From assembly GCA_964457005.1 (NCBI GenBank), contig CAYWDJ010000001.1, positions 1-60,482 on the forward strand: a stretch of DNA of 60,482 nt, given 5' to 3'. This document shows positions 10,934-60,482 of this stretch, piece by piece. A program made the position numbers and the translations under genes. The stretch is from an uncultured Planctomycetia bacterium. Its GTDB lineage: Bacteria; Omnitrophota; Gorgyraeia; Tantalellales; Tantalellaceae. A model generated the notes under the pieces. That model had not been told where the DNA came from. It ran no database searches and saw nothing but the letters and a program-made list of their open reading frames with translations. Within the stretch, counting starts at the first letter, position 1. Each line of letters starts with the position of its first letter.

Positions 10934-11395
10934 TTACATTAACGGATTGTTCCCTTTTATGCGGATTATTTTCCAGGACCCATCCTGCTCCTCAAAAACA
11001 AAAGTAGCGTTACCCTCAGTGAGAACCAACTGTCCTATATTCCTCTGCTGCACCCTTTTCTGCCACTTGAATGTAACTGCAAGGATCCCGTTATCACGCA
11101 TCACTTTATTTATAAAATACTCTATATCAACTACTATTATTTTGGAGTAAGAACTATCTATGTTGTTTATGAGCTGCATACGATCGGGCGAAAAATCATC
11201 CGAAAATATACTCATAAAACGAGGTATTGAAAAATTCCTATAGGCGTTTAATGTCGACCCCACCAGTTCATCAGCAAGCTGTCTCTCGGATACTCCGTCA
11301 TCTTTAACGCGTACGGCCTCGACCCCTTTGGGAAGCACGATCCCTCCGGCCACAACAGCAATTACGACAATACAACCTAAGTATATTTTTTTCAT
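10934..11395 (-). CDS. Small exported NTF2/SnoaL-like fold protein (153 aa)
   Basis: The track ORF 10934..11728 is trimmed to ATG 11395 (MKKIYLGCIVVIAVVAGG...). This start has a GGGAGG SD and lies 13 nt after the upstream stop at 11409. The sequence resembles a module inside the 1504-aa protein. Confidence 0.6.
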   Translation of the reverse strand: MKKIYLGCIVVIAVVAGGIVLPKGVEAVRVKDDGVSERQLADELVGSTLNAYRNFSIPRFMSIFSDDFSPDRMQLINNIDSSYSKIIVVDIEYFINKVMRDNGILAVTFKWQKRVQQRNIGQLVLTEGNATFVFEEQDGSWKIIRIKGNNPLM

Positions 11396-11408
11396 ATATC
11401 CTCCCGTT

Positions 11409-13340: not shown

Positions 13341-13382
13341 AAACAAAAAGCCCCAAACCGTCATCTGATAGCGGTTTGGAGC
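13341..13382 (-). terminator. Rho-independent terminator of the GPH transporter gene
   Basis: Minus-strand hairpin GCTCCAAACCG/CGGTTTGGGGC (one G.U) followed by a TTTTTGTTTTT run. The stem sequence is related to the terminators at 29.4, 58.7 and 60.1 kb, but no tRNA-like core is present. Confidence 0.7.
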
Positions 13383-13423
13383 TTTTGTTATTAAATCATG
13401 TACGCGCAGTCTTTACTCCTCTC

Positions 13424-18957: not shown

Positions 18958-20271
18958 TTATTTTCCCATAAAATATCTTAACCAAATATATGCCGTACAG
19001 ATAACCATCGACTGGATCATAAACCCAAACCCGTATTTGGAAAACCTCATAAAGTTAATAGGATAATTGTTTTTTTCGCTTATGCGGGCCATTACGATAT
19101 TGGCGGAAGCTCCGATGAGAGTACCGTTGCCACCAAGACAGGCGCCCAACGCAAGAGACCACCAGAGCGGCTGGGCGATCTCCATATGTATCACCACAGG
19201 ATCGACTATTCCCGATGCCTGTGAAAAGTAAATGATAAATTGCTTTACAAGCGGCACCATCGTGATCACAAAAGGTATGTTATCCAGGAGCGATGAAAAT
19301 ATAGCGGACCCCCACAAGACCACGATACATACAAGAAAAAGATTGTTCCCCGCTAAGTGAATAATATGATACCCTATCCATTCCATGACCCCGTTCGCCT
19401 CTAACGCCCCTATCATTATGAACATGCCTACAAAAAAGAACACTACCCCCCACTCAACGCTCATGAGGGCGTCATCGCTTTCCGAACGGCAAACAAGAAG
19501 CATCAGCATGCTTCCTCCCAGAGCTATTACACCGGCCTCTACATGCAGGATGTTATGCATAAAAAAACCAATAAAGATCAGCGCAAAGATCGAAAGCGAA
19601 CGGATCATCATTTTTTTGTCCACTATAGCCAGGTGGGGAATGGCATGCATCACTCTTGCTTTCATTTCTTCTGAAACATGAAACTTTTTGTGGAAAATAA
19701 AAAATGTGGTTGCCAGAAAAACAAAGAAAACGACAATTATTACGGGCCCTAAATTGGCCAGGAAACTATTAAATGAAAGTCCCGCCTGGGAGCCTATAAC
19801 AATATTCGGGGGATCCCCTATCAGGGTTGCCGTCCCTCCTATGTTCGATACTATCGCCTCCAAAATAACAAAAGGAACCGGCGATATTTCCAGTATTTGA
19901 GTTATCAAGATAGTTACGGGAACAAGCATGATAATGGTCGTAACATTATCCAAAAAAGCCGAAAGGATCGCCGTTGCGATAAGAAGAAGGACCATAATAT
20001 GCCATGGATCTCCTTTAGCGAATTTTGCCATGCTGATCGCTACCCATTCAAAGAATCCGGTTTTAGCGAGTATATGCACGCTCGTCATCATTCCCACGAG
20101 AAGGAACACAACGTTGAAATCTATCGCCAGGACCGCTTGCTCAAAAGAAACCAGCCCCAGAAAAAGCACTAATGAAGCCCCTAGGATAGCACTAATGGTC
20201 TTATTTACCTTTTCTGACGCTATAAAGTAATAAGATATCGCAAAGATCGCTATAGATAACATGGCTTTCAT
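18958..20271 (-). CDS. ArsB/NhaD-superfamily anion/cation permease
   Basis: 437 aa with 10-12 TM segments. N-terminus IAIFAISYYFIASEKVNKTISAILGA and internal GGTATLIGDPPNI/GGNGTLIGASANI duplicated hairpin motifs. Confidence 0.75.
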   Translation of the reverse strand: MKAMLSIAIFAISYYFIASEKVNKTISAILGASLVLFLGLVSFEQAVLAIDFNVVFLLVGMMTSVHILAKTGFFEWVAISMAKFAKGDPWHIMVLLLIATAILSAFLDNVTTIIMLVPVTILITQILEISPVPFVILEAIVSNIGGTATLIGDPPNIVIGSQAGLSFNSFLANLGPVIIVVFFVFLATTFFIFHKKFHVSEEMKARVMHAIPHLAIVDKKMMIRSLSIFALIFIGFFMHNILHVEAGVIALGGSMLMLLVCRSESDDALMSVEWGVVFFFVGMFIMIGALEANGVMEWIGYHIIHLAGNNLFLVCIVVLWGSAIFSSLLDNIPFVITMVPLVKQFIIYFSQASGIVDPVVIHMEIAQPLWWSLALGACLGGNGTLIGASANIVMARISEKNNYPINFMRFSKYGFGFMIQSMVICTAYIWLRYFMGK

Positions 20272-20288
20272 TTCGAACTCGTCCTTTC

Positions 20289-21215
20289 TTAAAAAAACAA
20301 TATTTTATCGATTATGCTGAACCTGTCTATAACTCCTATCAATGTGCCGTCGTCTTCCACTATGAATAATTTTGTTTTTCTCTTTACGGCCATCTCAAAA
20401 ATTATTTCAAGAAGAGTGCTGTCTTTTTTTATTCCACTGCCCCTTTTAAGGCCAAGGTCTTTGACTTTTATCCCCTTTTTAATATTGAAATATTTCTCTA
20501 ACGGGTCTATGTGTTTTATAAAAGAAACAGTCTGCAGCTGCCTGAAAAAATCAGGCATGCCAAACGTGAAAATATCATAGCAGGATATTTCTCCGTAAAA
20601 CCTGTTATTGTCATCGACTACAGGCAATATACTGATCCGTTTAAGATGCATCTTCTCGGTAACTTCTTCAATGGAAGTCTTTAATGTAACAACTTCCTTT
20701 ACCGGTCGGACTATATCGCGGGCAAGGACCTGTTCCGTGGCCTCTATTTCCTTTTCCTGCATAGTGTCGAATATCCTGGTTATCTTTTCTGGATCACTCA
20801 GGACATCCCCCTCCGGTCCCATATCTCCGATGAACCGGATGATAGCGGACATGGACTGAAGTATCATATATGGCTGTTCCGTTGAAGATATCATGAGGAA
20901 CACGAACTTGACGGGCTTGTCGTCCAAAGAGTTAAAATCCACAGTCTCGGTTAATACCCCCATGGCCATACGGAACTCTCCCCATTTTTCTATCCTGGCA
21001 TGGGGAAATGCCAATTCATGCCCTATTCCAGTACTCTGGAGCGACTCCCTCTTTATAACGGAATTATATGTTTCTTCCTTCGACACGGGGATAGCTCCCG
21101 CACCCGCTTCCTGGTATATCTTTTCGACAAGAAGCTTTATAGCCTCCTCTTTTGTCGAAGCCTTCAATTCAGGCACTATGGTATCGGAGTTTAAATACCG
21201 ACTTATATCGATCAT
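20289..21215 (-). CDS. PTS EIIA(Ntr)-type domain fused to a CBS pair
   Basis: N-terminal EIIA-2 pattern with the phosphorylatable His in GIGHELAFPHARIE. The C-terminal two CBS repeats include ILPVVDDNNRFYGEIS and LFIVEDDGTLIGVID. Confidence 0.75.
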   Translation of the reverse strand: MIDISRYLNSDTIVPELKASTKEEAIKLLVEKIYQEAGAGAIPVSKEETYNSVIKRESLQSTGIGHELAFPHARIEKWGEFRMAMGVLTETVDFNSLDDKPVKFVFLMISSTEQPYMILQSMSAIIRFIGDMGPEGDVLSDPEKITRIFDTMQEKEIEATEQVLARDIVRPVKEVVTLKTSIEEVTEKMHLKRISILPVVDDNNRFYGEISCYDIFTFGMPDFFRQLQTVSFIKHIDPLEKYFNIKKGIKVKDLGLKRGSGIKKDSTLLEIIFEMAVKRKTKLFIVEDDGTLIGVIDRFSIIDKILFF

Positions 21216-24790: not shown

Positions 24791-24859
24791 ATCCGAACCC
24801 GGGGGCACCTACTCTAAAAATAAAAAGCTCCAACCCATTATATTATAACGAATTGGAGC
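24791..24859 (+). repeat. Inverted, degenerate copy of the tRNA-like core + hairpin. The hairpin also serves as the terminator of the rhodanese gene on the minus strand.
   Basis: Plus strand atccgaaCCCGGgggCACCTaCtCt-aaaaataaaaa-GCTCCAA(19 nt)TTGGAGC. On the minus strand the perfect 7-bp hairpin is followed by TTTTTATTTTT, 48 nt after the rhodanese stop. Confidence 0.55.
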
Positions 24860-24907
24860 TTCCGTCACGATCCCATCGCGATATCTATCATTCGATTAAG
24901 TTATAAG

Positions 24908-29360: not shown

Positions 29361-29434
29361 AAAAAACAAAAAGCCCCAAGCCGTTATGCTTCAACGACTT
29401 GGAGCTTCTATTTTTAAATGGTGGAGGTGCCGGG
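29361..29434 (-). repeat. tRNA/tmRNA-3'-end-like core (16 nt) + rho-independent terminator, downstream of the PGK-fusion gene
   Basis: Minus strand, 30 nt after the stop: CCCGGCACCTCCACCA-TTTAAAAATAGA-AGCTCCAAG(17 nt)CTTGGGGCT-TTTTGTTTTTT. The stem has a G.U on the minus strand but a C.A mismatch on the plus strand. Confidence 0.7.
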
Positions 29435-29463: not shown

Positions 29464-32400
29464 TTAGGCCGCCGTAAGCACCTTGAGAATATTATCAAGT
29501 CCTTGTATGTCCATCGGAACTATAGGCCTTAGAACGTGGCCGATAACATAGCTGAACCTTTCATTAACGGTTTTTCCAGAATCTACCAGATTTGCTATGT
29601 ACTCATCCACATCAGCGGATCCACTGAGATATTCTGAAAGGATAGCTTTCAATACGGTATAACCGGATCTATCCCGATATTCTTCGGAAGGAAGGGTCCT
29701 TGCCAACAATATAGTTTCTAAGACTCCTCTCACAAAAGAATCGTGTCTCTCTCCCCTGCCAGGGATACCCTGCATGCTGAAATTCATGGGCAATACATCC
29801 GCAAAAACCTGTGGATTGGCATCTACTATTTCCTTCAAAACAGAATAGGTCAAATCCGTTGTGAGCAAACCTATCTTCGCCCCTTTATATCTGGCTACAA
29901 TTTCATGTAACCTGCCTATATCAGTATACTGGTTATATTGAACAAATTCGATATTACCGGCAGAAACAGATCCTTTTCCAAAAACTTCATTAATGAATTT
30001 TCCGCATTCTTTCTTGCCAGCAAAACTCTGCGGCACAATAAAAACCATCTTGTTAGATTCCGCGTCAGCCGCGATCTCCATAGCGGCCTTGTCTATAATA
30101 ACATCCGAAACTGGAGCTTCACTCTCTTCAGATTCCTGTTCGCCAGGCGGCATATTAAACATGTTCCAAGCAAGCCCTTTTTCGGTGGCCTTTTTTAAAG
30201 ACTGAACCGCGGGGAGGGGCTTTTGACCCGCTAAATACTGCAATGTAGCTCCTCCGGCAAGCGTCTGATAACTGAATCTATCTCCAAAAATATCCAAGGC
30301 CTTATCCGTATCTCCTCCTCCTCCGAATGAGAACAGATCTCCTTCCTCAGACCTCTCGGAGATCCTTCCGAAAACAATTCTCGTCCCTTCCGCGTATGCA
30401 TCATCGATGTCAAACGCCCCTAAAGGGCCCTTAATATATATCGTCTTTGCGGTATCAACAGCCCCCAGATATCTTCCAACAGTTTCAGGGCCTATATCAT
30501 AGAGCACCAGGTCTGTCCCGGCTAATTCCTCGACCTTAACTACCTTAACACCGTCTGGCCCTTTTACCACAACGTCAACAGGAGCCATAAATTTCCCCTT
30601 ATATGTGCTATCCAACTCTTTTATCTTAGCCAGCGCAGCGTCCAGGTCCATCTTACTTCTTAAGAATGCCACGTTCGCTTCACCTATATCTATACCCCTT
30701 GCCATTAAAAGCACATTCGCCAAGCCACCACCGGTTATGATAGTGCTTACCCAGTTTTCGCTCAATGCCCTTTCCATAAGATCCAGATAATCGTCTATTT
30801 TTATTCCTCCGAGCGCCATAACATAAGGTTGTTCTATCTCCTCGGTAGCTTTACCTAACCCCGTAAGCTCCTTTTCCATAAGACGTCCTGCAACATTAGG
30901 CACTCCGGTAAACCCGACAACACTCGCCGCTGCCCTGTGAGCAACTGAAAAGCCGTCTATTACATGTATGTCGATCAACGGCTGCAAATTCTCGACAAGC
31001 TCACCAAGAGAATGATCAACACCTTTCGCCTGTTCTCCTTTCCAGGAACGAACATTTTTCAGTATCAATATCTGCCCGGGCTTAAGATTACGAATGGCAT
31101 CTTTAGCTGTATCCCCAAACAGGTCATCTATAACTATCACATCATATTTCCTTCCGCTTTCAGGATCTATCGCTTCCATTTCCTGTTTTAAAACCGCCGC
31201 ATGCTGTTCCATAGTTTCAAGATAATCCTTATCACCCGGTCTGCCCTGATGACCCATAACAACTGTTTTGGCTCCTCTATCAGACAGTTCTTTCAATGTT
31301 ACAGCCGCCGCCTTGATTCTATTATTAGTTGTGACCTTCCCGCCTCGCGTCAAAGTCGTATTAATATCGACTCTTACACTTACTGTCCTGTCCTCAACAT
31401 CCACTTCATCCAATGTAAAATATTCTCTCTTTGTCCTATACTTACCAACAGGCACTATGTGCCTGTTATTACGTATCCTGGCTTTCATTAACTCTTGAAA
31501 ACTTGCTGCCTGGTCAGAGTCTACCCCCTCATGGGAGATCCCGGTTCTTCCCAGCAGCCCCGTTCCTCCGGCTGAAGCAGGCGAACCTCTTAATGTCCGC
31601 GCTCCGAATTCCTCCATAAAATAGAACACCATCGTGTCACCCAAACCATAGAGCTCTTTATCCGCACCCCTATTCCAATTTGCTGCCTGGATCCAGTGAA
31701 TAGTATTGGTGTCATTGTCATCATCATATTTAATGACCGTTCCGATCTCTATCCTCTGTTCTCCACTTGCGTCTGTGGATATCAACACAAAACCTTCTTC
31801 TTCATCAGGATCAGAGTAGGCAAGCCCTCCAAACTGGAGTATCCCCGCCTTCTGAATAAGAGGCAGCATGTCAGGACTAAATTTTCTAATCTCAAAGGTC
31901 CGCTCTTTACGCATCTTTCTATTCTGTATCCCGGCCAATATTTCTCTCTCGTCAGCGGCACTCTGCTGAGCTGCATAATAATCAACTTTATCCGGGGTCT
32001 GCCACCTGGTCTCAAAAGACCTCTCGCCGGCAACAGCCAACAGTGCTTTATCCGCCGCGGTTAATACAAGATTTTCGGGATCACTCAGCCATTTAGAGAA
32101 TATTTTCTCCATTTCCCGGCATTGTTTATGTTCTAATCCGGCCTTGGCAAAAACCTCATGCACGATTGCGCTATGAACACTGCCTGCGAACCCTTCAGGA
32201 ATATATATACCTACTCCCCCGGCGTGGGGCTCAGAAAGACCCGGTATAGACATCAACTGGCCTGAAGCTACAAGATTCTTGAACTGTTTGGCTATCGCGG
32301 GATTTACCCATTCAATAAATTCATTGGCTGAACCAACACTACCTATATCCAGGGTCTCAGCCTTCCCGCTGGTTATGGCTTCATGAATGATCTTATCTGC

Positions 32401-32988
32401 CGTATTCTCATGCGCGGCATATGTCATTATCGCGGCGTCATTAGCAACCTCTCGTTTCAAGCGAGCCACAAATTCCATAGCATTCGCCACTGAAGAGGAA
32501 ATTTGAGGAGCGATAAAATTCTCATACTCTTCCGGCGTAAAGACTTTAAACACATAAGTTCCGGACATCTCTTCTTTTATTGCGCAGCATACATAACTAT
32601 TGTCGTTTATGGAACAAGGAATGACCAGAAGATCACCGTCACCGTACTCTTGCTTCTTCCTGATATTGAATATAATGCTATCCCCCGGCCTCTCTATTCC
32701 CTCCGTTCCCTTTTCTTTAAGGATCTCATCAACGATAATGTTACGTCTGATAGCGTTGATGTCTCTACCCTTTTCCGCATACTCATACATTATCGTAGCC
32801 GTTAGCTTCATTACATCCCTAAGCGCGGGGGTCTCAATTGGAGCCAACCGTGATTCCGCGGCAAGATCGTCCACTGAAAGAATGTCTGAAGATATTCTTC
32901 CCCCTGAAAAGGCATCTATCACCATGACATTATTCGCTAAAAACGCGATAGTTGTAATAATTACGAGAAATTGTTTCATAACTTTCAT
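29464..32988 (-). CDS. Multidomain protein: signal peptide/anchor + ~520-aa unknown region + archaeal-type phosphoglycerate kinase domain + ~235-aa unknown C-terminal region
   Basis: The PGK domain (about nt 30190-31430) is collinear with archaeal PGK: FTLDEVDVEDRTVSVRVDIN, LSDRGAKTVVMGHQGRPG, ILILKNVR, FSVAHR, GGIKIDD, ITGGGLAN, GPLGAFD, FGGGGDT. Start trimmed to ATG 32988 (MKVMKQFLVIITTIAFL, AAGGAGA SD); the track ORF extends to 33045. Confidence 0.8.
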   Translation of the reverse strand: MKVMKQFLVIITTIAFLANNVMVIDAFSGGRISSDILSVDDLAAESRLAPIETPALRDVMKLTATIMYEYAEKGRDINAIRRNIIVDEILKEKGTEGIERPGDSIIFNIRKKQEYGDGDLLVIPCSINDNSYVCCAIKEEMSGTYVFKVFTPEEYENFIAPQISSSVANAMEFVARLKREVANDAAIMTYAAHENTADKIIHEAITSGKAETLDIGSVGSANEFIEWVNPAIAKQFKNLVASGQLMSIPGLSEPHAGGVGIYIPEGFAGSVHSAIVHEVFAKAGLEHKQCREMEKIFSKWLSDPENLVLTAADKALLAVAGERSFETRWQTPDKVDYYAAQQSAADEREILAGIQNRKMRKERTFEIRKFSPDMLPLIQKAGILQFGGLAYSDPDEEEGFVLISTDASGEQRIEIGTVIKYDDDNDTNTIHWIQAANWNRGADKELYGLGDTMVFYFMEEFGARTLRGSPASAGGTGLLGRTGISHEGVDSDQAASFQELMKARIRNNRHIVPVGKYRTKREYFTLDEVDVEDRTVSVRVDINTTLTRGGKVTTNNRIKAAAVTLKELSDRGAKTVVMGHQGRPGDKDYLETMEQHAAVLKQEMEAIDPESGRKYDVIVIDDLFGDTAKDAIRNLKPGQILILKNVRSWKGEQAKGVDHSLGELVENLQPLIDIHVIDGFSVAHRAAASVVGFTGVPNVAGRLMEKELTGLGKATEEIEQPYVMALGGIKIDDYLDLMERALSENWVSTIITGGGLANVLLMARGIDIGEANVAFLRSKMDLDAALAKIKELDSTYKGKFMAPVDVVVKGPDGVKVVKVEELAGTDLVLYDIGPETVGRYLGAVDTAKTIYIKGPLGAFDIDDAYAEGTRIVFGRISERSEEGDLFSFGGGGDTDKALDIFGDRFSYQTLAGGATLQYLAGQKPLPAVQSLKKATEKGLAWNMFNMPPGEQESEESEAPVSDVIIDKAAMEIAADAESNKMVFIVPQSFAGKKECGKFINEVFGKGSVSAGNIEFVQYNQYTDIGRLHEIVARYKGAKIGLLTTDLTYSVLKEIVDANPQVFADVLPMNFSMQGIPGRGERHDSFVRGVLETILLARTLPSEEYRDRSGYTVLKAILSEYLSGSADVDEYIANLVDSGKTVNERFSYVIGHVLRPIVPMDIQGLDNILKVLTAA

Positions 32989-33180
32989 ATGTGAAGTCTC
33001 CTTAAATTGGCTAAGTGTACAAAAAATCAAATCGTAAAACTTCAATGCAGCACAATGTAAATGGGTATATTGCTGTCATTTCCGTTCCGACAATTTAAAA
33101 TCTTAACACCACTATCTTACCAGATGAATCTAGTTAGGGCAATAAAAATCTATGTTACTTTTTCATACCTAACATCCTAT

Positions 33181-33208: not shown

Positions 33209-33394
33209 CACCTTACCATATAAGCATTTACAACTCACGCCGACAGAGGATACCGTAAGATACCCCTTGAAGCCCCTATGCAGGAAACCTTAGCGTGCTC
33301 CACCCTTCCCGCAGCCGAATACAGCGGAACTGAAAATCTGCTCAACCCGATGTGCGGTAGTGACACTATCACCATAGAAGCTGCGTTGATATCT

Positions 33395-33500
33395 TTGATC
33401 AAGGCTCCTTCTTTTAGCCCCACTAGCTCTCACGGTGTTGGCTTGTGGATACTTCTAAGCTCGCTAGTTAACGAGCACTGTTGGGGCCCCGGAAGAGTAC
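33395..33500 (-). repeat. Relic of the modular intergenic repeat (U2-type modules)
   Basis: Plus strand ccttcttttagccccactagctctcacggtgttggcttg matches 58605-58642 with 1 mismatch. The following ttctaagctcgctagttaacgagcactgttgggg parallels 60049-60085. Confidence 0.5.
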
Positions 33501-33574: not shown

Positions 33575-34075
33575 ATGGGAAAAATGTTCGATGAAAAAGG
33601 TAAATTAAATATCCCCGTAGCGGGATCTATCAGCATACCAAAATCAAAGATACATAAAAAAGGCAATCAACTTATTATCAGCAAGGCATACTGCCCAAAA
33701 GGGCACAGCCTCATGAGCAACGTACAAGTTGATGGTGAACCGGGACTTCATTTTATTTATACGAATAAAGCAGACACGAAAGAAACAGATATCGTCATCT
33801 CTTCTGTCGTAAAAAAATGCAGAAAAAAGATTTTGAAAGGCGAAGCTTTTAAAAAGAATGAAATGGTTAAGATTCTCTGCCCCACATGCCGGACAGAACT
33901 TGATATACTGTTCGACTGCGAATGTGGTGCACCCATATATATATTTTATCTAGACAAAAAGCGAAATTACTATTATGGTCAGTCTTTCTGCTCCCGAATC
34001 GGGTGTGTAAAGGCAAGTCAACTTCGTTTCTCACAAGATACACTCCAAGAATTCATCACCAAACACACATTTTAG
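33575..34075 (+). CDS. Hypothetical Cys-rich (zinc-ribbon-like) protein, 166 aa
   Basis: AAGGAGA SD. CPKGH...CPTCRTELDILFDCECG...CSRIGC cysteine pairs. It is one of only three plus-strand genes and I recognise no family. Confidence 0.5.
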   Translation: MGKMFDEKGKLNIPVAGSISIPKSKIHKKGNQLIISKAYCPKGHSLMSNVQVDGEPGLHFIYTNKADTKETDIVISSVVKKCRKKILKGEAFKKNEMVKILCPTCRTELDILFDCECGAPIYIFYLDKKRNYYYGQSFCSRIGCVKASQLRFSQDTLQEFITKHTF

Positions 34076-34104: not shown

Positions 34105-34310
34105 AAAAATCCCACCGCCTTGGATGGCAGTGGGATTTGATTTTTGGTGGAGGTGCCGGGATTCGATATGCGGTGGAGTTGTAACTTGTTCTACCCCATA
34201 CACTTATGACATAACTTGTTTATTTGTAAAAGATTTTGGATTCCACACAGCATACAACATCTTACAAGGTTTTCCCCTGGATTCACTTTGGATGGGCGCG
34301 TTTTGGGCAC
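34105..34310 (-). repeat. Long copy A of the repeat: ~165-nt body + 22-nt tRNA-like 3' end + terminator (possible structured RNA or att-like site)
   Basis: The minus strand starts at the HK stop and runs ...GCGCCCATCCAAAGTGAATCCAGGGGAAAACCTTG...ATCGAATCCCGGCACCTCCACCA (core 34166-34145). It continues AAAATCAA-ATCCCACTGCC(6)GGCGGTGGGAT-TTTTGTG. The hairpin (34109-34136) has a G.U on the minus strand and a C.A on the plus strand. The plus-strand T-run also lets it terminate the convergent 33575..34075 gene. Confidence 0.75.
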
Positions 34311-48582: not shown

Positions 48583-49629
48583 TTATAGGCAAGCCAGATC
48601 AACATTATCAAAATTCCTTTTATAGTACCTCATATAATCTACTTTGCACTCCAAAGATTGCATGACTGCATGAGAAAAGTTAACGCCCTCAAATTTTTGC
48701 GCGCTTCCTAATCCCCCGGGTGAAAACACATTAATTTCCATTAATTTGTCTCCGACAATATCCAGTCCAACCAAGAACATTCCATCCTGAACTAATTTTG
48801 GACGAACGATCTCGACGATATTAAGCATCTCTGGGGTTATTTCTGCCTGTTTCAACTTTCCGCCTGCATGAATATTGCTCCTCATATCATCCCCTGTACG
48901 AACACGACGAAAAGCACAATATTTACCTTTGTATTTTAGAGCCTGTCCATTCATAACAAAAAGTCGGGTATCTCCTTCTTCGGCTTTAGGTAAATATTCT
49001 TGCGCAATCACATATCCATCTCTGCTAACCGCATCGATCATCTGATTTAAATTTGAAAGATCACTGGGATTAACAAGAAAAACACCTTGGCCTCCCGATC
49101 CCTGTAAAGGCTTTAAAACAATTTTCCCTCCTTCCTGTTTAGCAAATTCTTTTATTTCATCCCTATTACGAGTAATCAACGTCCTGGGCCTTACTTCTTC
49201 AGGAAAAAGCTGAAAATACATTTTATTCATCGCTTTTGAAAGACCATTCGGATCATTCAAAACAATAACTCCGTTACGCATGGCAACTCTACCAAAAATA
49301 ATGCCTGAAGATTGAGCCCATGATCGTAAGCCGGCATCCTCGGCAGGATCACTTCTTAACATTAATATGTCTAAGTCATCCACAGTAATTTTCTCAACAG
49401 GAGCTTTTTGCGTTTGAATGTCCTTAATTAATCTATCTGAAAGTTTATATTTTTTCTGCGGAATTGCTTGGGCATGCGCACAAATTTTTTCATCAAGGTC
49501 ATAAACAAAGTCCCCTGCCCCAATTATCCAAACTGAATGACCTCTATTGACTGCCGCCATAGCGAGTCGGATTGTTGTATACCCTGCTTCCTCAGTCTTT
49601 ACATCATTAACTACAAACCCTAGTTTCAT
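48583..49629 (-). CDS. Glutathione-synthetase-like ATP-grasp ligase (GshB/RimK superfamily)
   Basis: Collinear with E. coli GshB by eye: MKLGFVVND, DILMLRSDP, IVLKPLQGSGGQGVF, AQEYLP, GDTRLFVMNG, NIHAGG, FLVGLDIVGDKLMEINVFSPGG. Confidence 0.8.
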   Translation of the reverse strand: MKLGFVVNDVKTEEAGYTTIRLAMAAVNRGHSVWIIGAGDFVYDLDEKICAHAQAIPQKKYKLSDRLIKDIQTQKAPVEKITVDDLDILMLRSDPAEDAGLRSWAQSSGIIFGRVAMRNGVIVLNDPNGLSKAMNKMYFQLFPEEVRPRTLITRNRDEIKEFAKQEGGKIVLKPLQGSGGQGVFLVNPSDLSNLNQMIDAVSRDGYVIAQEYLPKAEEGDTRLFVMNGQALKYKGKYCAFRRVRTGDDMRSNIHAGGKLKQAEITPEMLNIVEIVRPKLVQDGMFLVGLDIVGDKLMEINVFSPGGLGSAQKFEGVNFSHAVMQSLECKVDYMRYYKRNFDNVDLACL

Positions 49630-51536
49630 TTTAATCCTCCTTCTGGCAAATTATAAACTTCTATCCCTTTTTGTATCCTTTCCAATTTTTCTTTGACGCC
49701 GGCTGTCGATAAAAATCTTGGACGCAAAACAGATGTAGACAATATTTTTCTTGAGACCAGTTCTTTTATAACAGGAATATGATCAAATCCAAATTTCCCG
49801 ATAAACAATAGATCTAGATCTCCCCCTTTTTTTATAAACTCCAGAACTTTCTGCAGCCCCCTGAGATAAATAATGTCTTTAATTGATCCGCCGGCTCTAT
49901 AAGTACGAAATGTTATCCTAAAAGCATGCCCTTTGTCAAAGCTATATTTATTTATTAACCCATCAAACGTTTCTACGAAATTCTTTCCGTCTGCAAGCCA
50001 TCTGGCTGCAATAACTCTCGCAGCAACCGTTCGCAATCTGGCAGGCGTGAGTTCCCCTGAAAGAAATTCAGCTAAAAGAGCAAGGCCCTCTTGTAATTCT
50101 TCATATCCTGCAAGTCCGCTATATAGTTGTTTGAATGGCTGCTGACGGCCATTATAGTACGTTACCAAATGTGTCCCCACTTCATGTTGGATCAAAGCGT
50201 TGACTCTCGACTCAGAGATTTTAGCATTCTTCCCGATGTGAACCTTATTCCCAACAACAAGAATTCCCGGGACACTTTCATCTATCTCTGCTAAAGCGTC
50301 AAACATATGGCACTCCTGCTTATAATGGAGGATCTCATCGTTTACTTTTTTCAGGAAGCCCATTGAGTCTATTAAATTTTTACTTTCGGATGATGAAGGT
50401 ATCTTATTTAATATTTTTTGCGCTAACTCTGTAAGCTTATTATCTACTTTTCCGTAGAGCTGTAAGTTGCTAAACAAAAAACGTTTAGTTCCTCTATTTA
50501 TTAACATATTTAAACGGTGTTCCAATTCAAATTGTTTTTCTCTGAAAAGATCAGCTAATGTAGGGTCTTCAATTCGTTCAATAGGGATATTAAACAACCT
50601 TCGCTTAATTAGTGCAGGATCTATCGGTAAAGGTCGATAATAAAATTCCGGTATTTTACTGAACTTATCAGTTTTAAACTGATTCCAGGCAGCTCCCGCA
50701 TTCACAGGAGTAATCAACAATAGAAAATCAAAGGCATTGCTAACTTCAGCTAATTTTGAATCTATTTCCCAAACAGCTTTTACAACCGCTCTTCGCCCCA
50801 ATGCCTTGTAATTAGACGGCTGGTGATCTGTATGCTCCTTCAAAAAAATAAAACATAATTGTTTCAAAGCCTTGGATAAACCACGATGCAGCGATCGCAG
50901 GACCAGGGGAAAAAGCTCTCCGTTCTTCTGGCTTCTGTATATGGGATTTACGGTTATTCCAACTGAATAAGATCGATACTTTTCACTAGCTTCTTTTTTT
51001 AGTAACAATGGTAGCCCTTGTGGTGCAACCTTGGCCTCAAAGGACATTTTTACATCAGCATATACTTTGAGGATCCGGATCTTCTTAAGAAAATCCGCAA
51101 AACCTGATAGCATTGGGGTGTAAAGACTAAATTTCGGATCTTCCGTAGAGATCCTGAACATCGTTTTTTGCAATGCCCCTTTAGTTGTTTTTGGACTCTT
51201 ACCCCTTTCCGCCCATAGCTCCAACAGTAAAAATCCTCCAAATTCAGCAGACATGATCTTAACAATATTTTCAAGTAGCTTTTCTAAATTCTTCTGATAT
51301 CGTGGATCTGCGGTTACGATCAAATATGAGGCTTCACCCATTATCAGCCGCTCTGTTCCTTCATCCTTAGAATTCAAGGGTTTTCGATAAACAAACAGGA
51401 ATGGCATTGGCCGATCAATGTGGATCCGTCCTCCCGGAAGGGTTCGGCGAACCCTCTTCCCTTGCGAAAGTCTTGTACATATTGCCTTGACTAGCCGGTC
51501 AAATTTTTCTTCTGATGATCTTATTTTTTTATTCAT
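49626..51536 (-). CDS. QEGLA-motif / DUF1704 (MATCAP-like metallocarboxypeptidase) family protein
   Basis: Literal motif YEELQEGLALLAE and the upstream metal-site-like IQHEVGTHLVT. 636 aa. 4-nt overlaps with both neighbours. Confidence 0.8.
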   Translation of the reverse strand: MNKKIRSSEEKFDRLVKAICTRLSQGKRVRRTLPGGRIHIDRPMPFLFVYRKPLNSKDEGTERLIMGEASYLIVTADPRYQKNLEKLLENIVKIMSAEFGGFLLLELWAERGKSPKTTKGALQKTMFRISTEDPKFSLYTPMLSGFADFLKKIRILKVYADVKMSFEAKVAPQGLPLLLKKEASEKYRSYSVGITVNPIYRSQKNGELFPLVLRSLHRGLSKALKQLCFIFLKEHTDHQPSNYKALGRRAVVKAVWEIDSKLAEVSNAFDFLLLITPVNAGAAWNQFKTDKFSKIPEFYYRPLPIDPALIKRRLFNIPIERIEDPTLADLFREKQFELEHRLNMLINRGTKRFLFSNLQLYGKVDNKLTELAQKILNKIPSSSESKNLIDSMGFLKKVNDEILHYKQECHMFDALAEIDESVPGILVVGNKVHIGKNAKISESRVNALIQHEVGTHLVTYYNGRQQPFKQLYSGLAGYEELQEGLALLAEFLSGELTPARLRTVAARVIAARWLADGKNFVETFDGLINKYSFDKGHAFRITFRTYRAGGSIKDIIYLRGLQKVLEFIKKGGDLDLLFIGKFGFDHIPVIKELVSRKILSTSVLRPRFLSTAGVKEKLERIQKGIEVYNLPEGGLK

Positions 51537-52324
51537 ATTTTATTCAATTCTTCAAGAACTCCGGGCACAGCTGATTGCAATGCTTGAAAAATAGTTTGTA
51601 TTTTTTCTTTGTCAGGCTCGCCGGTCCATTCATTCATAAAGATTTTTTTAAATTCAATAGATAGAACACATGCTGCATCGGGAAATTTTTCATGCACAAA
51701 TTCAGGGAAATGTCCCCCGCGAAACTTAATATTTTCTCTAACGTCTAATTTTCTTCCAAAATAATTAAAACTAGACAAATCATCAATGAAATTATTAATA
51801 ACACCCTTCCAACGAGATCTATCGAGCATCGTTCCTGTTCCAATATTCACTTCAGGATTGTCTTTGCCCGCAGCAGGCTGAGCATCAGGTCCATTTCGCC
51901 TATGGTTATAGGAATGCACATCAAAAACAACAAACTTTCCAAATTTACTCTCAAATTCTGATAGCACATCATGAATATTTTTGTAAAACAAGTCATATGT
52001 CTGTAACGAACTTCTCACAAATTTCTCGCCTGGTTTTGATTCCCAAACATTAAGCCCCCAAGCATCATCAGGAGTCAAATAAACAGCCTTATCCCTTGCG
52101 CGATTCAAATCAACCTCAAATCGTGATGTCTTTACAATCAAACTATTCTCAACGACACCTGTCCACGCTCCAGTGAAAGGATCTTCCTCTCGCAAACGAT
52201 CCTCACTGCTCAATGCCATTAACTTTAAGGCTTCTTCGCTAAGCTGGTGCCCATCATGTATGGCGGTAGCAATCACCGGAACATCATTATTTTTTAAATT
52301 TAATAAATAGTCCATATTTGTCAT
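51533..52324 (-). CDS. N-formylglutamate amidohydrolase (FGase) family protein
   Basis: IHDGH, EEDPFT, DLNR, VFDVHSY and NIGTG motifs in the order expected for the FGase/HutG-like fold. 263 aa. Confidence 0.7.
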   Translation of the reverse strand: MTNMDYLLNLKNNDVPVIATAIHDGHQLSEEALKLMALSSEDRLREEDPFTGAWTGVVENSLIVKTSRFEVDLNRARDKAVYLTPDDAWGLNVWESKPGEKFVRSSLQTYDLFYKNIHDVLSEFESKFGKFVVFDVHSYNHRRNGPDAQPAAGKDNPEVNIGTGTMLDRSRWKGVINNFIDDLSSFNYFGRKLDVRENIKFRGGHFPEFVHEKFPDAACVLSIEFKKIFMNEWTGEPDKEKIQTIFQALQSAVPGVLEELNKI

Positions 52325-52540: not shown

Positions 52541-52715
52541 AAATAAAAACCCCAAGTCATTATTAAATAACAACTTAGGGTTTCTATTTTTATTTGGTGG
52601 AGGTGTACGGGATACAAAAACCGAACCATGTGAGGTTTTTGAACCCCGGAATCTACACAAGCTATGAGCGAAGCGAATAGCAAAGAATTAGACGAAGTCT
52701 GATTCTTACATTTAA
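52541..52715 (-). repeat. Copy C of the repeat (short body + diverged core + terminator), second unit of a tandem array
   Basis: Minus strand AGACTTCGTCTAATTC...CCGGGGTTCAAAAACCTC...TATCCCGTACACCTCCACCA (core 52611-52595), then AATAAAAATAGAA-ACCCTAAGT(15)ACTTGGGGT-TTTTATTTTT. The hairpin has a G.U on the minus strand only. Confidence 0.6.
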
Positions 52716-53020
52716 AACAAAAAACCCGGAAGAGGATTTATTCTCTTCCGGGTTTAGTTTTAAATGGTGGAGGTGCCGGGATTCGATATGCGATGGAGTT
52801 GTAACTTGTTCTCCTCCATACACTTATGGTGATAACTCCTTTATTTAGAAAAGTTTAGGTTCTTACAACATCTTACAAGGTTTTCCCCTAGATTCACTTT
52901 GGATGGGCGCGTTTTCGCTGCGCCTTCTCTCGCTTTGCTCGAGGATCCTTCTGGACCCGCCTTGACAACTAGAACGGTGTCGAGCACACAATAGTGGCGG
53001 AGAAACTACACAAACAACTC
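52716..53020 (-). repeat. Long copy B of the repeat: U2-type module + ~165-nt body + 22-nt tRNA-like 3' end + terminator
   Basis: Begins 5 nt after the stop at 53025. Shares with copy A a 48-nt block (1 mismatch) and a 47-nt block (1 mismatch) flanking a diverged middle. Core 52786-52765; perfect hairpin CCCGGAAGAG/CTCTTCCGGG (52725-52753) plus a T-run. Confidence 0.75.
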
Positions 53021-53024
53021 GCTG

Positions 53025-53753
53025 CTATTGCTTGAACTTCTTAGGGAATTGCTTGATCATGCCCTCGGCCAATAGAGCAGCGATCTTAAGTGCATGCACA
53101 ACTGCCTCATCAGAGACTTTTACTTCCGCAGCATAATCTTTCTTGAGCCGTAAGTCTGCTTGCATAGCGAGATACTCCAGATGCTGGTAAAATATATCTT
53201 TCAAAGTCTGTTTCTCCCAAAGAGGGTTTCTGGCCAGGGCAAATAGACCCGCGATATTATCGGCATTATTCCGTCCCTTCTCTTTGGCCTTGTTCAAGGC
53301 CTCGACATCCCCGTTCTTTGTCGCCTTGACGATCTCCATGGCAATAAGGATATGTTGCTGTAGGAGATCGGATAACCTATTCCCGGCCCAGCCTCCGTAG
53401 TAAGGCGTTATGATGTCACCGATTATCTCCTGATTTTTAACAAGTTGCTTCTTCACAACAGCCACATCATCAAGACCTGACATCACGCTTACGACATACC
53501 TCCCGGTCCAGATCACATCATATTCCCATAGCTGTCTCAAGAGAAGCCTGAAATTAATAGAGGATTCGGTGTAGGGCGGTAATGCTCTCGCTGGCCTCCA
53601 GTCGAATATTTTCTCAACAAAAGAAGGCACTAAGTCCGCCGGCTTCCGGTTGAAAACTTGTGTAATGCTACTAAATACCTCGTAGCGGGTCCATATTACG
53701 CCACTCACAAAACTTAAGAAAACTACAGCTAAAATAATTATTGATCTCTTCAT
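53025..53753 (-). CDS. Hypothetical exported/anchored helical protein (242 aa)
   Basis: N-terminal anchor MKRSIIILAVVFLSFVSGVIW. The rest looks helical and I recognise no family. Flanked on both sides by repeat copies. Confidence 0.55.
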   Translation of the reverse strand: MKRSIIILAVVFLSFVSGVIWTRYEVFSSITQVFNRKPADLVPSFVEKIFDWRPARALPPYTESSINFRLLLRQLWEYDVIWTGRYVVSVMSGLDDVAVVKKQLVKNQEIIGDIITPYYGGWAGNRLSDLLQQHILIAMEIVKATKNGDVEALNKAKEKGRNNADNIAGLFALARNPLWEKQTLKDIFYQHLEYLAMQADLRLKKDYAAEVKVSDEAVVHALKIAALLAEGMIKQFPKKFKQ

Positions 53754-53810: not shown

Positions 53811-53872
53811 AAAAACCCTATGCAACTATTTTAGTTGCATAGGGTTTAGTTTTGAATGGTGGAGGTTTCAGG
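53811..53872 (-). repeat. Minimal copy of the repeat (10-nt core ACCTCCACCA + terminator) immediately after the TolC-like gene
   Basis: Minus strand, 6 nt after the stop: CCTGAAACCTCCACCA-TTCAAAACTAAA-CCCTATGCAAC(7)GTTGCATAGGG-TTTTT. The stem is a perfect 11 bp. Confidence 0.65.
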
Positions 53873-58574: not shown

Positions 58575-58930
58575 CATTATCTCTTCGCTTCGCTCGAGGA
58601 TCCTTCTTTTAGCCCCACTAGCTCTCACGGTGTCGGCTTGCGGAACCTTCCATATCGCCTCTTAAACTCGCACGGTTTGGACACACTTGAAGCCTCCCAA
58701 AAAAACAAAAAACCCCAAGTCATTATTTTACAACAACTTAGGGCCTATATTTTTAAATGGTGGAGGTGCCGGGGTTAGATTAAGGGTGTTTTTGCAAACC
58801 CTCTATTTACGGTGCTTTCGCACTTATCTCGTGTATTTATAAGAAATTACAGAGTGCGGTTGTTTACATTTAGCTACATATGATTACAGATGTTTTGATG
58901 TGAAATGGGCACTGTTTGGGCTCTAACATA
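58575..58930 (-). repeat. Composite copy F: diverged ~165-nt body + 17-nt core + terminator + s1/U1/U2 modules
   Basis: The minus strand starts 2 nt after the HEPN stop: GCCCAAACAGTGCCCATTTC..., GTGC-GAAA-GCAC, AGGGT(10)ACCCT, ...CCCCGGCACCTCCACCA (core 58774-58758). The hairpin at 58712-58744 has a G.U on the minus strand only, then a T-run. Modules follow, including the 45-nt U1 (58634-58678). Confidence 0.65.
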
Positions 58931-58931
58931 C

Positions 58932-59348
58932 TTACTGTTTAGTATCTTCTTCCACTAAACGTTTTGCCTTATCTAAAGTCGATTCAACAAAGCTTATATA
59001 CTCTACACATTCCTTGGTTGTTACCTCTATACCTCCATCATACAAATCTGTATTTCTTTTAGATCTCATCAAGTTTCCTAGCGCACTAACTCCATCATCA
59101 GCAAGAATATCCGCAAGTTTTTCTATGATCTTAATATGATGTCCTCGTACACTTTTCACTTTTCTCCCATAAAAACTAATAAGGGCTATGCCTGTCTTCA
59201 AAAGCGCGGTATATGAATAATTAAACTTCACATCTAAAAATTTATCTTTTTTTGCAATATCCAAATCACGCAAAGCATTCTTAATGTTATTGTGAACCTG
59301 TTCTTGTGTAAATTTGAACTTTGCAAAACATTTATCATCAAATTTCAT
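58932..59348 (-). CDS. HEPN-domain protein (putative toxin of a HEPN/MNT pair)
   Basis: 138 aa, all-helical. The region LMRSKRNTDLYDG resembles the HEPN R-x-x-x-x-(H/Y) region. The start overlaps the MNT stop by 1 nt (TAATG). Confidence 0.6.
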   Translation of the reverse strand: MKFDDKCFAKFKFTQEQVHNNIKNALRDLDIAKKDKFLDVKFNYSYTALLKTGIALISFYGRKVKSVRGHHIKIIEKLADILADDGVSALGNLMRSKRNTDLYDGGIEVTTKECVEYISFVESTLDKAKRLVEEDTKQ

Positions 59349-59893
59349 TAAATAACCTCAATGTATTTTTCTTTAAAAACAGTCTCAATAAAAGGATCTT
59401 TTCCCTTTTGTCTTTTTTCAAAATCTATTTTGTCCATATTCACAACATTGATTTCTCTGCCGATTTCTTTTTGAATTTTACTGATCTCTTTTTGCAGATC
59501 CATTACACTATGCTCACCTACTACTAAAAGATCTATGTCGCTATGTGCCTCCATTGAATCTTTGGCATACGAACCAAAAAGATAAACTTTTTCGATGCCC
59601 TTTATTTTAGTGAGCATATTTTTTAACTTACTTTCGACACCTATTGTTTTAAAAACTATTTTCTTATATTCTTCATACAGTGGATATAACTTATTGATCG
59701 AATATATTTTTTGATTTCCCCTTGTCTCGCTTGACAATAGTCCATCATTTTCAAGTTCTTTGAGTTTTTTAAGAAGATTCCTTTTATCCAAATTCAGTTT
59801 CCTCTCCATCTCATTCACGAAAAGACTATCTTCAGGATTGAGGAAAAAATAATTCAAAAGTACTTTTGTTATCTTTGATCTCATTGATATCAT
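59348..59893 (-). CDS. Winged-helix + minimal nucleotidyltransferase (MNT) protein (putative antitoxin)
   Basis: N-terminal wHTH-like region. The nucleotidyltransferase motif VYLFGSYAKDSMEAHSDIDLLVV is GS...DxD. AAGGAG SD. Confidence 0.75.
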   Translation of the reverse strand: MISMRSKITKVLLNYFFLNPEDSLFVNEMERKLNLDKRNLLKKLKELENDGLLSSETRGNQKIYSINKLYPLYEEYKKIVFKTIGVESKLKNMLTKIKGIEKVYLFGSYAKDSMEAHSDIDLLVVGEHSVMDLQKEISKIQKEIGREINVVNMDKIDFEKRQKGKDPFIETVFKEKYIEVI

Positions 59894-59917
59894 AACGTGT
59901 CTCCTTTTACACCGATA

Positions 59918-59946
59918 AGTGTATCATATTACACCTCACTAGTCAA
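59918..59946 (-). promoter_or_regulatory. Candidate promoter of the MNT-HEPN pair
   Basis: Minus strand reads TTGACT - 17 nt - TACACT, 25 nt upstream of ATG 59893. Confidence 0.5.
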
Positions 59947-59954
59947 GATAAGGT

Positions 59955-60173
59955 CATTAAGGCATGCTTTCGCTGCGCCTTCGGCTTGCGGAACCTTCCA
60001 TATCGCCTCTAAAACTCGCACGGTTTCTCTCGCTTTGCTCGAGGATCCTTCTAAGCTCGCCTAGGAAGCTCGCACGGTGTGGGCACACATAAAGTCTTCA
60101 TACAAACAAAAAGCCCCAAACCGTTATGTTTCAACAACTTGGAGCTTCTGTTTTTAACTGGTGGAGGTGCCGG
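59955..60173 (-). repeat. Composite copy H: 15-nt core + terminator + s1/U2/U1 modules, upstream of the TA pair
   Basis: Minus strand ...CTCCGGCACCTCCACCA (core 60173-60159), then GTTAAAAACAGA-AGCTCCAA(19)TTGGGGCT-TTTTGTTTG, then AGACTTTATGTGTGCCCACACCGTGCGAG. U2 and the 45-nt U1 (59982-60026) follow. The hairpin has a G.U on the minus strand only. Confidence 0.65.
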
Positions 60174-60482
60174 AGGGTGTGCGGTTTAAGGCTAAAATAA
60201 GCCCCCTCAACACGGCTCCACCACGATTTGCACCAATTATCGCCCTACTAAGCTCCCTCTGCTGGACGAGTTTAGAACTTGGTTTTATTCAAAAGAAGCA
60301 AGAAAATTACAGCAAATCAAGTCCACTCCTTCCCAAGAGGGGTCAAAATCAAAACTATGGTCTTTTTTACTTAAACGTTTTCGACGCACAGTTTATAGAA
60401 GATGAGCGAAAAGTAATTTTTTTGATCGGCATCTTGTCTTTAAGAAGCTCGTATAAAAGTTCGCACCAATTCTCACAAGTAG

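Follow-up and report, generated by a model that had tools for sequence, protein, structure and literature searches.

Two overlapping genes of the MNT and HEPN types, a putative toxin-antitoxin (TA) pair, lie on the minus strand near the right-hand end of a 60,482-nt stretch of DNA (the window) from an uncultured bacterium of the Omnitrophota (contig CAYWDJ010000001.1, assembly GCA_964457005.1). An earlier note, made from the letters of this stretch, had described the pair as a mobile cassette set between two copies of a 45-nt module and two tRNA-like cores with terminators. We found that the cores match the 3' end of the tmRNA gene, ssrA, of relatives, and we consider it likely that the operon is the cargo of an integrase-less islet in a chain built by repeated integration at the ssrA 3' end, in the manner of a cis-mobilizable element (CIME). 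The relatives L018 (GCA_015231715.1) and L024 (GCA_016783605.1), two metagenome-assembled genomes (MAGs), were reached by looking up close homologues of the window MNT protein; other loci and contigs also carry L numbers. The features of the islet (58758-60173, 1.4 kb, with a core-to-core spacing of 1401 nt) and of its flanks are given below in the order in which they are met on the minus strand.

60174-60240, minus strand: P-arm-like segment upstream of the right-hand core, holding ATTGGTGCAAATCGTGGTGGA, an inverted copy of the core end
60159-60173, minus strand: ssrA 3'-end core, upstream boundary of the TA islet, CCGGCACCTCCACCA; exact 15-mer, identical to the intact tmRNA 3' ends in L018 and L024
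60109-60149, minus strand: intrinsic terminator right after the right-hand core, with a predicted 18-pair stem whose G.U pairs exist on the minus strand only
60026-60103, minus strand: tail with GTGCCCA, and unit a', a degenerate a-type tandem unit; no counterpart in relatives
59981-60026, no strand assigned: unit b', the right-hand module copy, 98% identical to 58633-58678, between the linker and unit a'
59959-59980, minus strand: linker, aggcgcagcgaaagcatgcc on the minus strand, common to the copy at 52.9 kb
59918-59946, minus strand: TA promoter, TTGACT-17-TACACT with an extended -10 TG; promoter block 88-91% conserved in L018, L021, and L023
59348-59893, minus strand: nucleotidyltransferase of the MNT type, putative antitoxin, with a winged-helix domain at its N terminus (Pfam PF01909 and PF18765)
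58932-59348, minus strand: HEPN-fold protein of 138 aa, putative toxin, whose start overlaps the MNT stop (AlphaFold and Foldseek)
58773-58931, minus strand: P-arm-like body between the HEPN stop and the core, starting with GCCCA-aaca-GTGCCCA direct repeats (plus-strand 58906-58923)
58758-58772, minus strand: ssrA 3'-end core, downstream boundary of the TA islet, exact 15-mer
58710-58746, minus strand: intrinsic terminator following the left-hand core (terminator prediction and folding)
58633-58678, no strand assigned: unit b, the left-hand module copy
58580-58632, no strand assigned: unit a, of the a type, upstream of the promoter of the RND efflux operon

The MNT/HEPN operon

The MNT protein matched the Pfam families NTP_transf_2 (PF01909, 1.3e-12) and Polbeta (PF18765, 6.7e-13), while its score against the NCBIfam MntA equivalog (38.6 bits) fell under the cut-off of 60, as did an ArsR-type helix-turn-helix (HTH) match under its own; its homologues (n = 638) are mostly from Omnitrophota. 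For the 138-aa partner, assignment at the level of sequence failed (no match in Pfam or NCBIfam, and nothing from phmmer and profile searches of the PDB), and fold comparison alone succeeded. The AlphaFold model (predicted local distance difference test score 89.8) had its best Foldseek matches among HEPN structures, namely 2hsb, 3o10, and 1wol (TM 0.62-0.73; for 2hsb, E 7.6e-4 and TM 0.68/0.73), the proteins best matched being AF_0298, sacsin HEPN, and ST0689, and the JGI label for homologues of the partner is UPF0332. Comparison of the invariant residues (H70, H71, R95, R98, N99, D101, and Y103) did not reveal the canonical R-x4-6-H RNase motif; R98-N-x-D-x-Y103 and H70-H71 stand in its place, and the partner is therefore called a putative toxin of the modeled HEPN fold. 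The HEPN/MNT pair announced by the earlier note was thus recovered, by Pfam domains for the one gene and by fold for the other, with the function putative. The pair probably stabilizes the islet or acts in defense.

Promoter prediction confirmed the TTGACT/TACACT promoter with a 17-nt spacer at 59946-59918 of the minus strand. Direct repeats of GGTGTAA with 22-nt spacing (59895-59946, minus strand) overlap both this promoter and the Shine-Dalgarno sequence, as they likewise do in L026 (1894-1936), and their placement suggests that they are likely an operator for the HTH domain of the MNT protein. The block conserved among relatives (58891-59958) comprises the promoter, both genes, and about 40 nt beyond. 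At 31.7% GC, it is poorer in GC than any other 1068-nt stretch of the 60 kb (mean 43.0%, sd 2.8), as would be expected of foreign cargo, and the flanking synteny is not conserved.

The boundary cores and the tmRNA gene

The 15-mer TGGTGGAGGTGCCGG occurs in five exact copies in the 60-kb window, where 0.01 would be expected, and two degenerate copies bring the total of cores to seven, all on the same strand (starts at 29419, 34145, 52595, 52765, 53857, 58758, and 60159) and spread over 31 kb. A strong hairpin lies directly beside each, and the combination of hairpin and TGGTGGAGGTGCCGG at 58758 and 60159 has an identical orientation. Because the G.U pairs of these hairpins arise only in the minus-strand reading and nearly all window genes are on that strand, the cores are read functionally on the minus strand, where the sequence is CCGGCACCTCCACCA and then a terminator. 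Every copy stands at the 3' end of a minus-strand gene with a very strong hairpin, and terminator prediction bore out the terminators claimed for both cores of the TA islet (minus-strand 60149-60109 and 58746-58710). Folding of the seven copies gave strong terminators and no common structure around the core; the only hairpins at the islet boundaries are these GC-rich terminators, whose sequence varies between copies.

Using ARAGORN, we found smpB followed by an intact tmRNA gene in both L018 (2051-2438) and L024 (3624-4007). The tmRNA 3' end in these two relatives, whose ssrA genes rather than that of the window's own organism serve for the comparison, is ...GGGTTCGA(T/A)TCCCGGCACCTCCACCA, and the window copies, and with them the boundary repeats of the islet, are identical to it over 15-22 nt, with the G3.U70 acceptor-stem geometry expected for tmRNA. 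The core 17-mer was present at 73 IMG/VR loci, 37 of them within a tmRNA gene, none within a tRNA gene, and 36 as isolated fragments. On this sequence identity, the cores, tRNA-like in the wording of the earlier note, are 3' ends of ssrA; the sites and the common orientation that it gave stand.

Several other candidates for the core were tried and rejected. A tRNA or a known RNA family was set aside as ARAGORN detected no tRNA in the window and no tmRNA gene there or in a 343-nt extension past its right end, and Rfam had no match on the window above the gathering thresholds, while permissive thresholds yielded nothing but noise. A tRNA whose acceptor stem is Watson-Crick paired (GGAGGTG) was dropped since the intact tmRNA genes share the same 3' end and the G3.U70 geometry, and a functional tRNA-like fold was rejected on the folding result. 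A viral link was likewise abandoned, for none of the 73 IMG/VR loci carries the arms or the TA genes.

In the relatives, arrays of such cores begin at an intact ssrA, as seen upstream of the arrays in L018 and L024. In L018, ssrA is followed by co-oriented cores at 4357, 5837, 7130, and 8662, each followed in turn by a terminator homologous to those of the window, with core-to-core distances of 1.3-1.9 kb. The cassettes before these cores hold one or two genes each: SLFN/AlbA_2 and Fic-like, AAA_14/DUF4143, MNT-HEPN, and Fic_N with Fic. Islets in relatives end in a P-arm-like segment, a core, and a strong terminator. The TA block of the window is 81-82% identical in DNA over about 1 kb to those of L018, L023, and L024, and it is bounded by cores on both sides in the window (1401 nt), L018 (1293 nt), and L023 (1330 nt, core to core); in L024 the block is followed by a core. 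Its neighbors differ: a PTPS-like gene and the RND operon in the window, AAA_14 and Fic in L018, a YhcG nuclease and Fic in L023, and a MarR-like gene and a 1265-aa gene in L024. Two further genomes have the TA pair without cores. In L021 the pair and a 242-aa gene lie between the copies of a 52-nt direct repeat (5854-5905 and 7710-7761, 96% identical) that begins at the stop codon of a DEAD-box helicase gene, an arrangement that suggests a different small insertion with the same TA operon and again points to mobility. The 242-aa ORF of L021 is unrelated to ORF242 of the window and was rejected as a link.

The segments upstream of the cores resemble integrase arms. Window 60152-60240 matches L018 4371-4283 at 75%, and the arm segments were also aligned by eye. 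The start of the 58773-58931 body is kept after the cassette genes in L018 and L023, and the pair GTGCCCA-N4-GTGCCCA, with 11-nt phasing, stands right after the cassette stop codon in the window (58906-58923 and at 34.3 kb), L018, and L023; a pair of this type likewise follows each window terminator. The GTGCCCA pairs look like arm-type integrase sites, and they and the GTGGTGGA repeats are candidate repeats that an integrase would bind.

As the earlier note had stated, no recombinase is visible in the window: a domain scan of about 50 window ORFs did not find a recombinase domain. The att-like sites of the window thus have no recombinase beside them, which fits the integrase-less (CIME) subclass. 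Relatives do encode one. In the L024 array there are excisionase-like HTH_17 genes together with a split tyrosine integrase, broken by a stop just past the first catalytic Arg motif. Intact 362-aa homologues of this integrase are common in Omnitrophota (n = 129 at E<=1e-10); in L102 an HTH_17 gene precedes the intact integrase gene. In L102 and L104 the integrase region is followed, within about 80-950 nt, by AGTGTGGTGAAA x2 (two direct repeats of (A)GTGTGGTGAAA) and, about 35 nt on, by the ssrA core; a GTGGTG(G/A)A direct-repeat arm lies immediately downstream of the intact integrases. This integrase-adjacent arm type also precedes cores in L023, L024, and L018, and the window segment 60174-60240 (ATTGGTGCAAATCGTGGTGGA...) is related to it.

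We hypothesize that a tyrosine integrase would act on an attP holding a 15-22-nt block identical to the ssrA 3' end. Each integration would regenerate ssrA from the identity block and terminator of the element and push the previous copy of the block downstream, and for this reason ssrA fragments of a single orientation would come to lie between the islets. Such an islet, in the minus-strand reading, would run from a terminator (ending the regenerated ssrA transcript) through a spacer, its own promoter, the cargo, and a P-arm-like body carrying short direct repeats to the core. The window array would hang off an ssrA gene beyond the right end. Because they are without an integrase, the window islets would be cis-mobilizable at best or fixed relics at worst; they may be mobile today, and if still moving they would be mobilized in trans like CIMEs. 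A core-mediated empty site would read ...CCTATATTTTTAAA-TGGTGGAGGTGCCGG-AGGGTGTGCGG... (a 1401-bp deletion), and the corresponding circle ...CTTCTGTTTTTAAC-TGGTGGAGGTGCCGG-GGTTAGATTAAGG....

The five window cores outside the TA islet are as follows.

53857-53871, minus strand: degenerate core and terminator, 7 nt past the stop of the outer-membrane efflux gene
52765-52779, minus strand: core that agrees with the ssrA 3' end over 22 nt (TCGAATCCCGGCACCTCCACCA), a body before it and a terminator after it
52595-52609, minus strand: degenerate core CCCGTACACCTCCACCA and terminator
34145-34159, minus strand: core that agrees with ssrA over 22 nt, together with a body (34160-34310) and a terminator
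29419-29433, minus strand: leftmost window core, with a terminator

Among the genes near these cores, a 1193-aa ORF (29464-33045, minus strand) is a large fusion protein with a phosphoglycerate kinase domain confined to residues 545-941, and 48583-52324 (minus strand) encodes a MATCAP-like (PF08014) 636-aa protein, a glutathione-synthetase/RimK-type ATP-grasp protein, and an N-formylglutamate amidohydrolase-like protein. Two small cargo ORFs lie between array elements, one of 166 aa with weak zinc-ribbon matches (33575-34075, plus strand) and one of 242 aa with no Pfam match (53025-53753, minus strand). Terminators 61-71% similar to those at the cores, without an ssrA core, were found at 13341-13410 and 24818-24887; these are sites of greater age that have decayed, or else generic relatives. 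In the window, the EIIA/CBS and CitMHS gene pair (18958-21215) lies about 8 kb beyond the last core (29419), and its counterpart in L022 (2891-5137) directly follows a short TA-Fic array, which hints at growth of the window array or at a rearrangement of the region. The L018 array has a Y1_Tnp (IS200/IS605 or RAYT-like) gene (11232-11786) at its far end.

A similar array was observed at another gene. In the Omnitrophota MAG contig JBAROK010000026.1 (L008, 9720-20377), an intact tRNA-Ser(GCU) gene stands just upstream of an operon for an RND pump and its outer-membrane protein (RND-OMP), and three co-oriented tRNA-Ser 3'-end fragments, GAATCCCTCCCTCTCCGCCA, follow the RND-OMP, ABC-F, and DsbD genes (14611, 17136, and 20358). 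The last of these fragments is preceded by a body that shows homology to window 58834-58919, and the 58773-58931 body is 74% similar to an L008 segment ending in a tRNA-Ser fragment; in L007 a CCTCTCTCCGCCA fragment lies about 110 nt upstream of the RND gene. From these sequences, the L008 array appears to be the same phenomenon at a different gene. The RND-OMP operon is thus flanked by cores in both places, of the ssrA type in the window and of the tRNA-Ser type in L008.

The a and b units and the rival explanations

Between a terminator and the next promoter, the window carries units of an a type (a, a', a'', and one unit at 33.4 kb), which are 76-81% alike, and of a b type, in which b and b' are 97-98% alike and the copy at 33.4 kb about 65%. 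The 45-nt module of the earlier note, for which 44/45 identity had been given, is this b pair, which we see as a 46-nt direct repeat (58633-58678 and 59981-60026) with 45/46 identity. The plus-strand order is normally linker, a, (b), tail, while at 60.0 kb b' lies between the linker and a'. The mosaic build that had been described was also found: since 59968-59982 equals 52913-52927 and 60025-60089 matches 52925-52990 at 82%, the module at 60.0 kb separates pieces that adjoin each other at 52.9 kb. Amid flanks of 77-80%, the nearly identical b and b' show that a recent local event took place, and the module pair records a recent local duplication or recombination within lineage-specific tandem units, separate from the family-wide site. 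This event could have been gene conversion or template switching between two neighboring arrays, or the insertion of a circle by recombination within b; the arrangement of the units does not discriminate between core-mediated and module-mediated insertion, both being possible.

At 33.4 kb, a 180-nt segment (33230-33409, plus strand) is 82% identical to L007 742-911. A noncoding RNA reading of it was rejected, since the segment derives from a gene resembling those for THUMP/SAM-dependent RNA methyltransferases; of the 379 residues this fragment covers about 162-221, and it is interrupted at the start of unit a. Its end shows a weak alignment with the linker and Box 1 found in the a-type units (52.9, 58.6, and 60.0 kb), and for that reason the a-type units may, tentatively, descend from the methyltransferase-fragment junction.

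Repeated integration at ssrA has several observations against it. Neither ssrA nor a recombinase was found in the window, and the 343-nt extension past the right end, given by contigs L001 and L006, holds only a PTPS/QueD-like gene. The genes between the cores are largely transporter- or housekeeping-like (RND efflux operon, CorA, MscS, and the phosphoglycerate kinase fusion). The bodies beside the TA block differ between genomes, so that cargo may swap between scaffolds by homologous recombination rather than from core to core, and the near-identity of b and b' is left unexplained by integrase-mediated insertion. Finally, we detected no empty site, circular or alternative junction, or strain variant of the islet among the JGI/ENA contigs covering parts of the locus, and hence no allele lacking the 58.7-60.0 kb segment such as the earlier note had called for. 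Independent contigs from several samples match the window exactly wherever they overlap it (two contig groups, L001/L002/L006 and L101, in the upstream flank, one contig, L005, downstream, and two, L003/L004, in the TA genes only), one overlapping contig coming from a strain with a 1-aa difference in MNT, and exact-protein look-ups returned only short contigs identical to the window, with no empty site. The RND pump is 70-77% identical in amino acids to its homologues in Omnitrophota MAGs, and a syntenic empty site is unreadable there because the loci reached through RND share the RND-OMP pair only.

Alternatively, the 45/46-nt module itself might be the crossover site. A circle consisting of b, tail, terminator, core, body, TA, and linker would have recombined with a chromosomal b, homologously or by another site-specific system, leaving b and b' on either side of a 1348-bp insert; the module-to-module spacing is indeed 1348 nt vs 1401 nt from core to core. 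The 98% identity of b and b', compared with about 77-80% for the adjacent terminators and tails and at most 81% for other unit pairs, speaks for such an event, as do the sharp stop of that identity at both unit borders and the position of b' precisely where two pieces meet, linker and a', that adjoin each other at 52.9 kb. However, a module 20-mer was found in only two contigs among 241 million JGI records, both of them this locus at 100% identity; no relative carries a and b units in its TA islet; and the module borders miss the edges of the conserved TA block (58891-59958). The contiguity of linker and a' seen at 52.9 kb would have to be re-created by coincidence, and 46 nt is short for a RecA-mediated insertion. 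We therefore regard the module as an unlikely crossover site, although such a crossover is compatible with an ssrA array and does not exclude it. Under it, an empty site would consist of unit a, one module, and CTCTCGCTTTGCTCGAGG (a 1348-bp deletion), and the circle of GCTGCGCCT, the module, and GGACACACTTGAAG. Of the earlier proposal, then, the repeat is real, while as a family-wide boundary it is replaced by the 15-22-nt ssrA core as the operative repeat, and cargo flanked elsewhere by the same 45-mer did not turn up, the JGI contigs having the module at this locus only and the relatives lacking the units.

It is quite improbable that the copies are non-mobile mosaic repeats, or repeats of the MITE, BOX, or BIME kind, that double as operon terminators, with the TA pair merely sitting between operon ends and the likeness to ssrA being an ancient co-option. 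The modular makeup and variable number of the units would suit this explanation, as would the place of all copies at the 3' end of minus-strand genes with very strong hairpins, the related coreless terminators at 13341 and 24818, the housekeeping-like genes between copies, and the lack of an integrase in the window. Against it, up to 22 nt of the cores agree with ssrA and the arrays of relatives begin at intact ssrA, all copies have a single orientation, the same arm plus core adjoins intact integrases, the same TA cargo is bracketed in genomes with differing neighbors, and neither terminal inverted repeats nor target-site duplications were seen. The dispersal in many copies and both orientations that is typical of BOX, BIME, or REP repeats was not observed either, there being only four unit loci, all co-oriented and all beside ssrA cores. 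That the core and upstream body form a functional tRNA-like RNA element (e.g. a 3'-UTR minihelix for processing or stability), copied for its usefulness, is very improbable: the sequence does read like a T-arm with an acceptor 3' end, directly precedes terminators on the coding strand, forms stems in some copies, and keeps its core perfectly while the flanks diverge, but the copies share neither a consistent structure nor a complementary 5' acceptor strand, ARAGORN and Rfam found nothing, and attP/attB identity would predict core conservation anyway.

Taken together, these results favor repeated integration at ssrA: the mobile TA cassette of CIME-type accretion is upheld by the same operon bracketed by cores among differing neighbors, the ssrA-headed arrays, and the cognate integrase, with the recombination site reassigned from the module to the core and the repeat family of the window read as scars of integration at ssrA. 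Uncultivated Omnitrophota would thus stack tiny integrase-less islets of defense type (MNT/HEPN, Fic, SLFN/AlbA, AAA_14-DUF4143, and PDDEXK) behind the tmRNA gene, and sequence comparison points to a cognate integrase family for the ssrA core sites in this phylum. A bolder proposal, which we hold as conceivable though doubtful, is an active integron-like cassette platform at the Omnitrophota ssrA, with a parallel one at tRNA-Ser, in which dozens of 1.3-1.9 kb single-operon cassettes (each with its own promoter, a compact integrase-binding arm, a perfectly kept core, and a terminator) would be shuffled in trans by the 362-aa tyrosine integrases, with cargo from TA and defense genes to efflux operons and with the a and b units as exchangeable accessory recombination or regulatory sites. 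If the islets are still mobilized in trans, they would amount to a natural and compact system of cassettes in a phylum without genetic tools, and the integrase-att pair could then be of use for engineering.

Comparison with known systems

Like the type VII HepT/MntA system (Shewanella SO_3166/SO_3165; PDB 5yep and 7bxo), the window operon consists of adjacent, overlapping MNT and HEPN-fold genes with their own promoter, and HepT/MntA structures appear among the fold matches of the HEPN model. Unlike that system, the window MNT falls under the NCBIfam MntA cut-off and has an extra N-terminal HTH domain, and the window HEPN protein is nearest to AF_0298 and sacsin-type HEPN, with R98-x4-Y103 replacing R-x4-6-H.

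The a and b units resemble BOX and BIME repeats in behaving as shufflable 45-55-nt modules of variable copy number, but they are few, lineage-specific, and confined to the terminator-proximal side of ssrA cores, and no RAYT or other mobilizing enzyme is linked to them. With integron cassettes, the islets have in common an array of small single-function cassettes, repeated sites, and a recombinase encoded elsewhere. The integron analogy drawn by the earlier note nevertheless fails, as the sites are direct ssrA fragments with asymmetric arms and not attC imperfect inverted repeats (R''-L''/L'-R'), the integrase of the relatives is not of the IntI type, the window is without intI or any other integrase, and the cassette has its own terminator and a promoter of its own that other genomes conserve as well.

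Traffic at the tmRNA gene is a general phenomenon (Islander/TIGER, PMC4383910). The tycheposons of Prochlorococcus are tyrosine-recombinase elements that target tRNA and tmRNA genes, where repeated integration displaces older elements and where degenerate remnants and pieces of tRNA genes are scattered over the islands (Hackl et al., bioRxiv 10.1101/2020.12.28.424599). The targeting of tmRNA and the pushing of older elements further in, both proposed for the window, and the fragments left behind are alike; the host phylum and the element family are different, and replication modules or modules like those of phage-inducible chromosomal islands were not seen here. CIME accretion in the Streptococcus ICESt1/CIME model, so far as it is cited in PMC3146451, is alike in its integrase-less, att-bounded segments stacked beside an integration hot spot. 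Unlike in that model as cited there, no helper integrative and conjugative element or conjugation module was identified here, and trans-mobilization is only putative.

A close parallel in layout is offered by the ssrA genomic islands (ssrA-GIs) of Dehalococcoides, tandem islands that lie within 100 kb of ssrA and have a 20-bp ssrA repeat at their borders (McMurdie et al. 2011, PMC3146451), some of which are without an integration module and were proposed as CIMEs (PMC3146451). In both systems, co-oriented ssrA 3'-end repeats of about 20 nt border tandem islands with integrase-less members. The recombinase is a tyrosine integrase in the Omnitrophota relatives vs the serine recombinase DsiB in Dehalococcoides, the host is an Omnitrophota bacterium whose ssrA lies outside this window, and the Omnitrophota islets are of 1.3-1.9 kb with one operon each and their own promoter, arm segment, and terminator. 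The accretion of islets at ssrA is a principle already well known from other phyla, and what mainly sets the present case apart is the phylum and the very small, regular islets.

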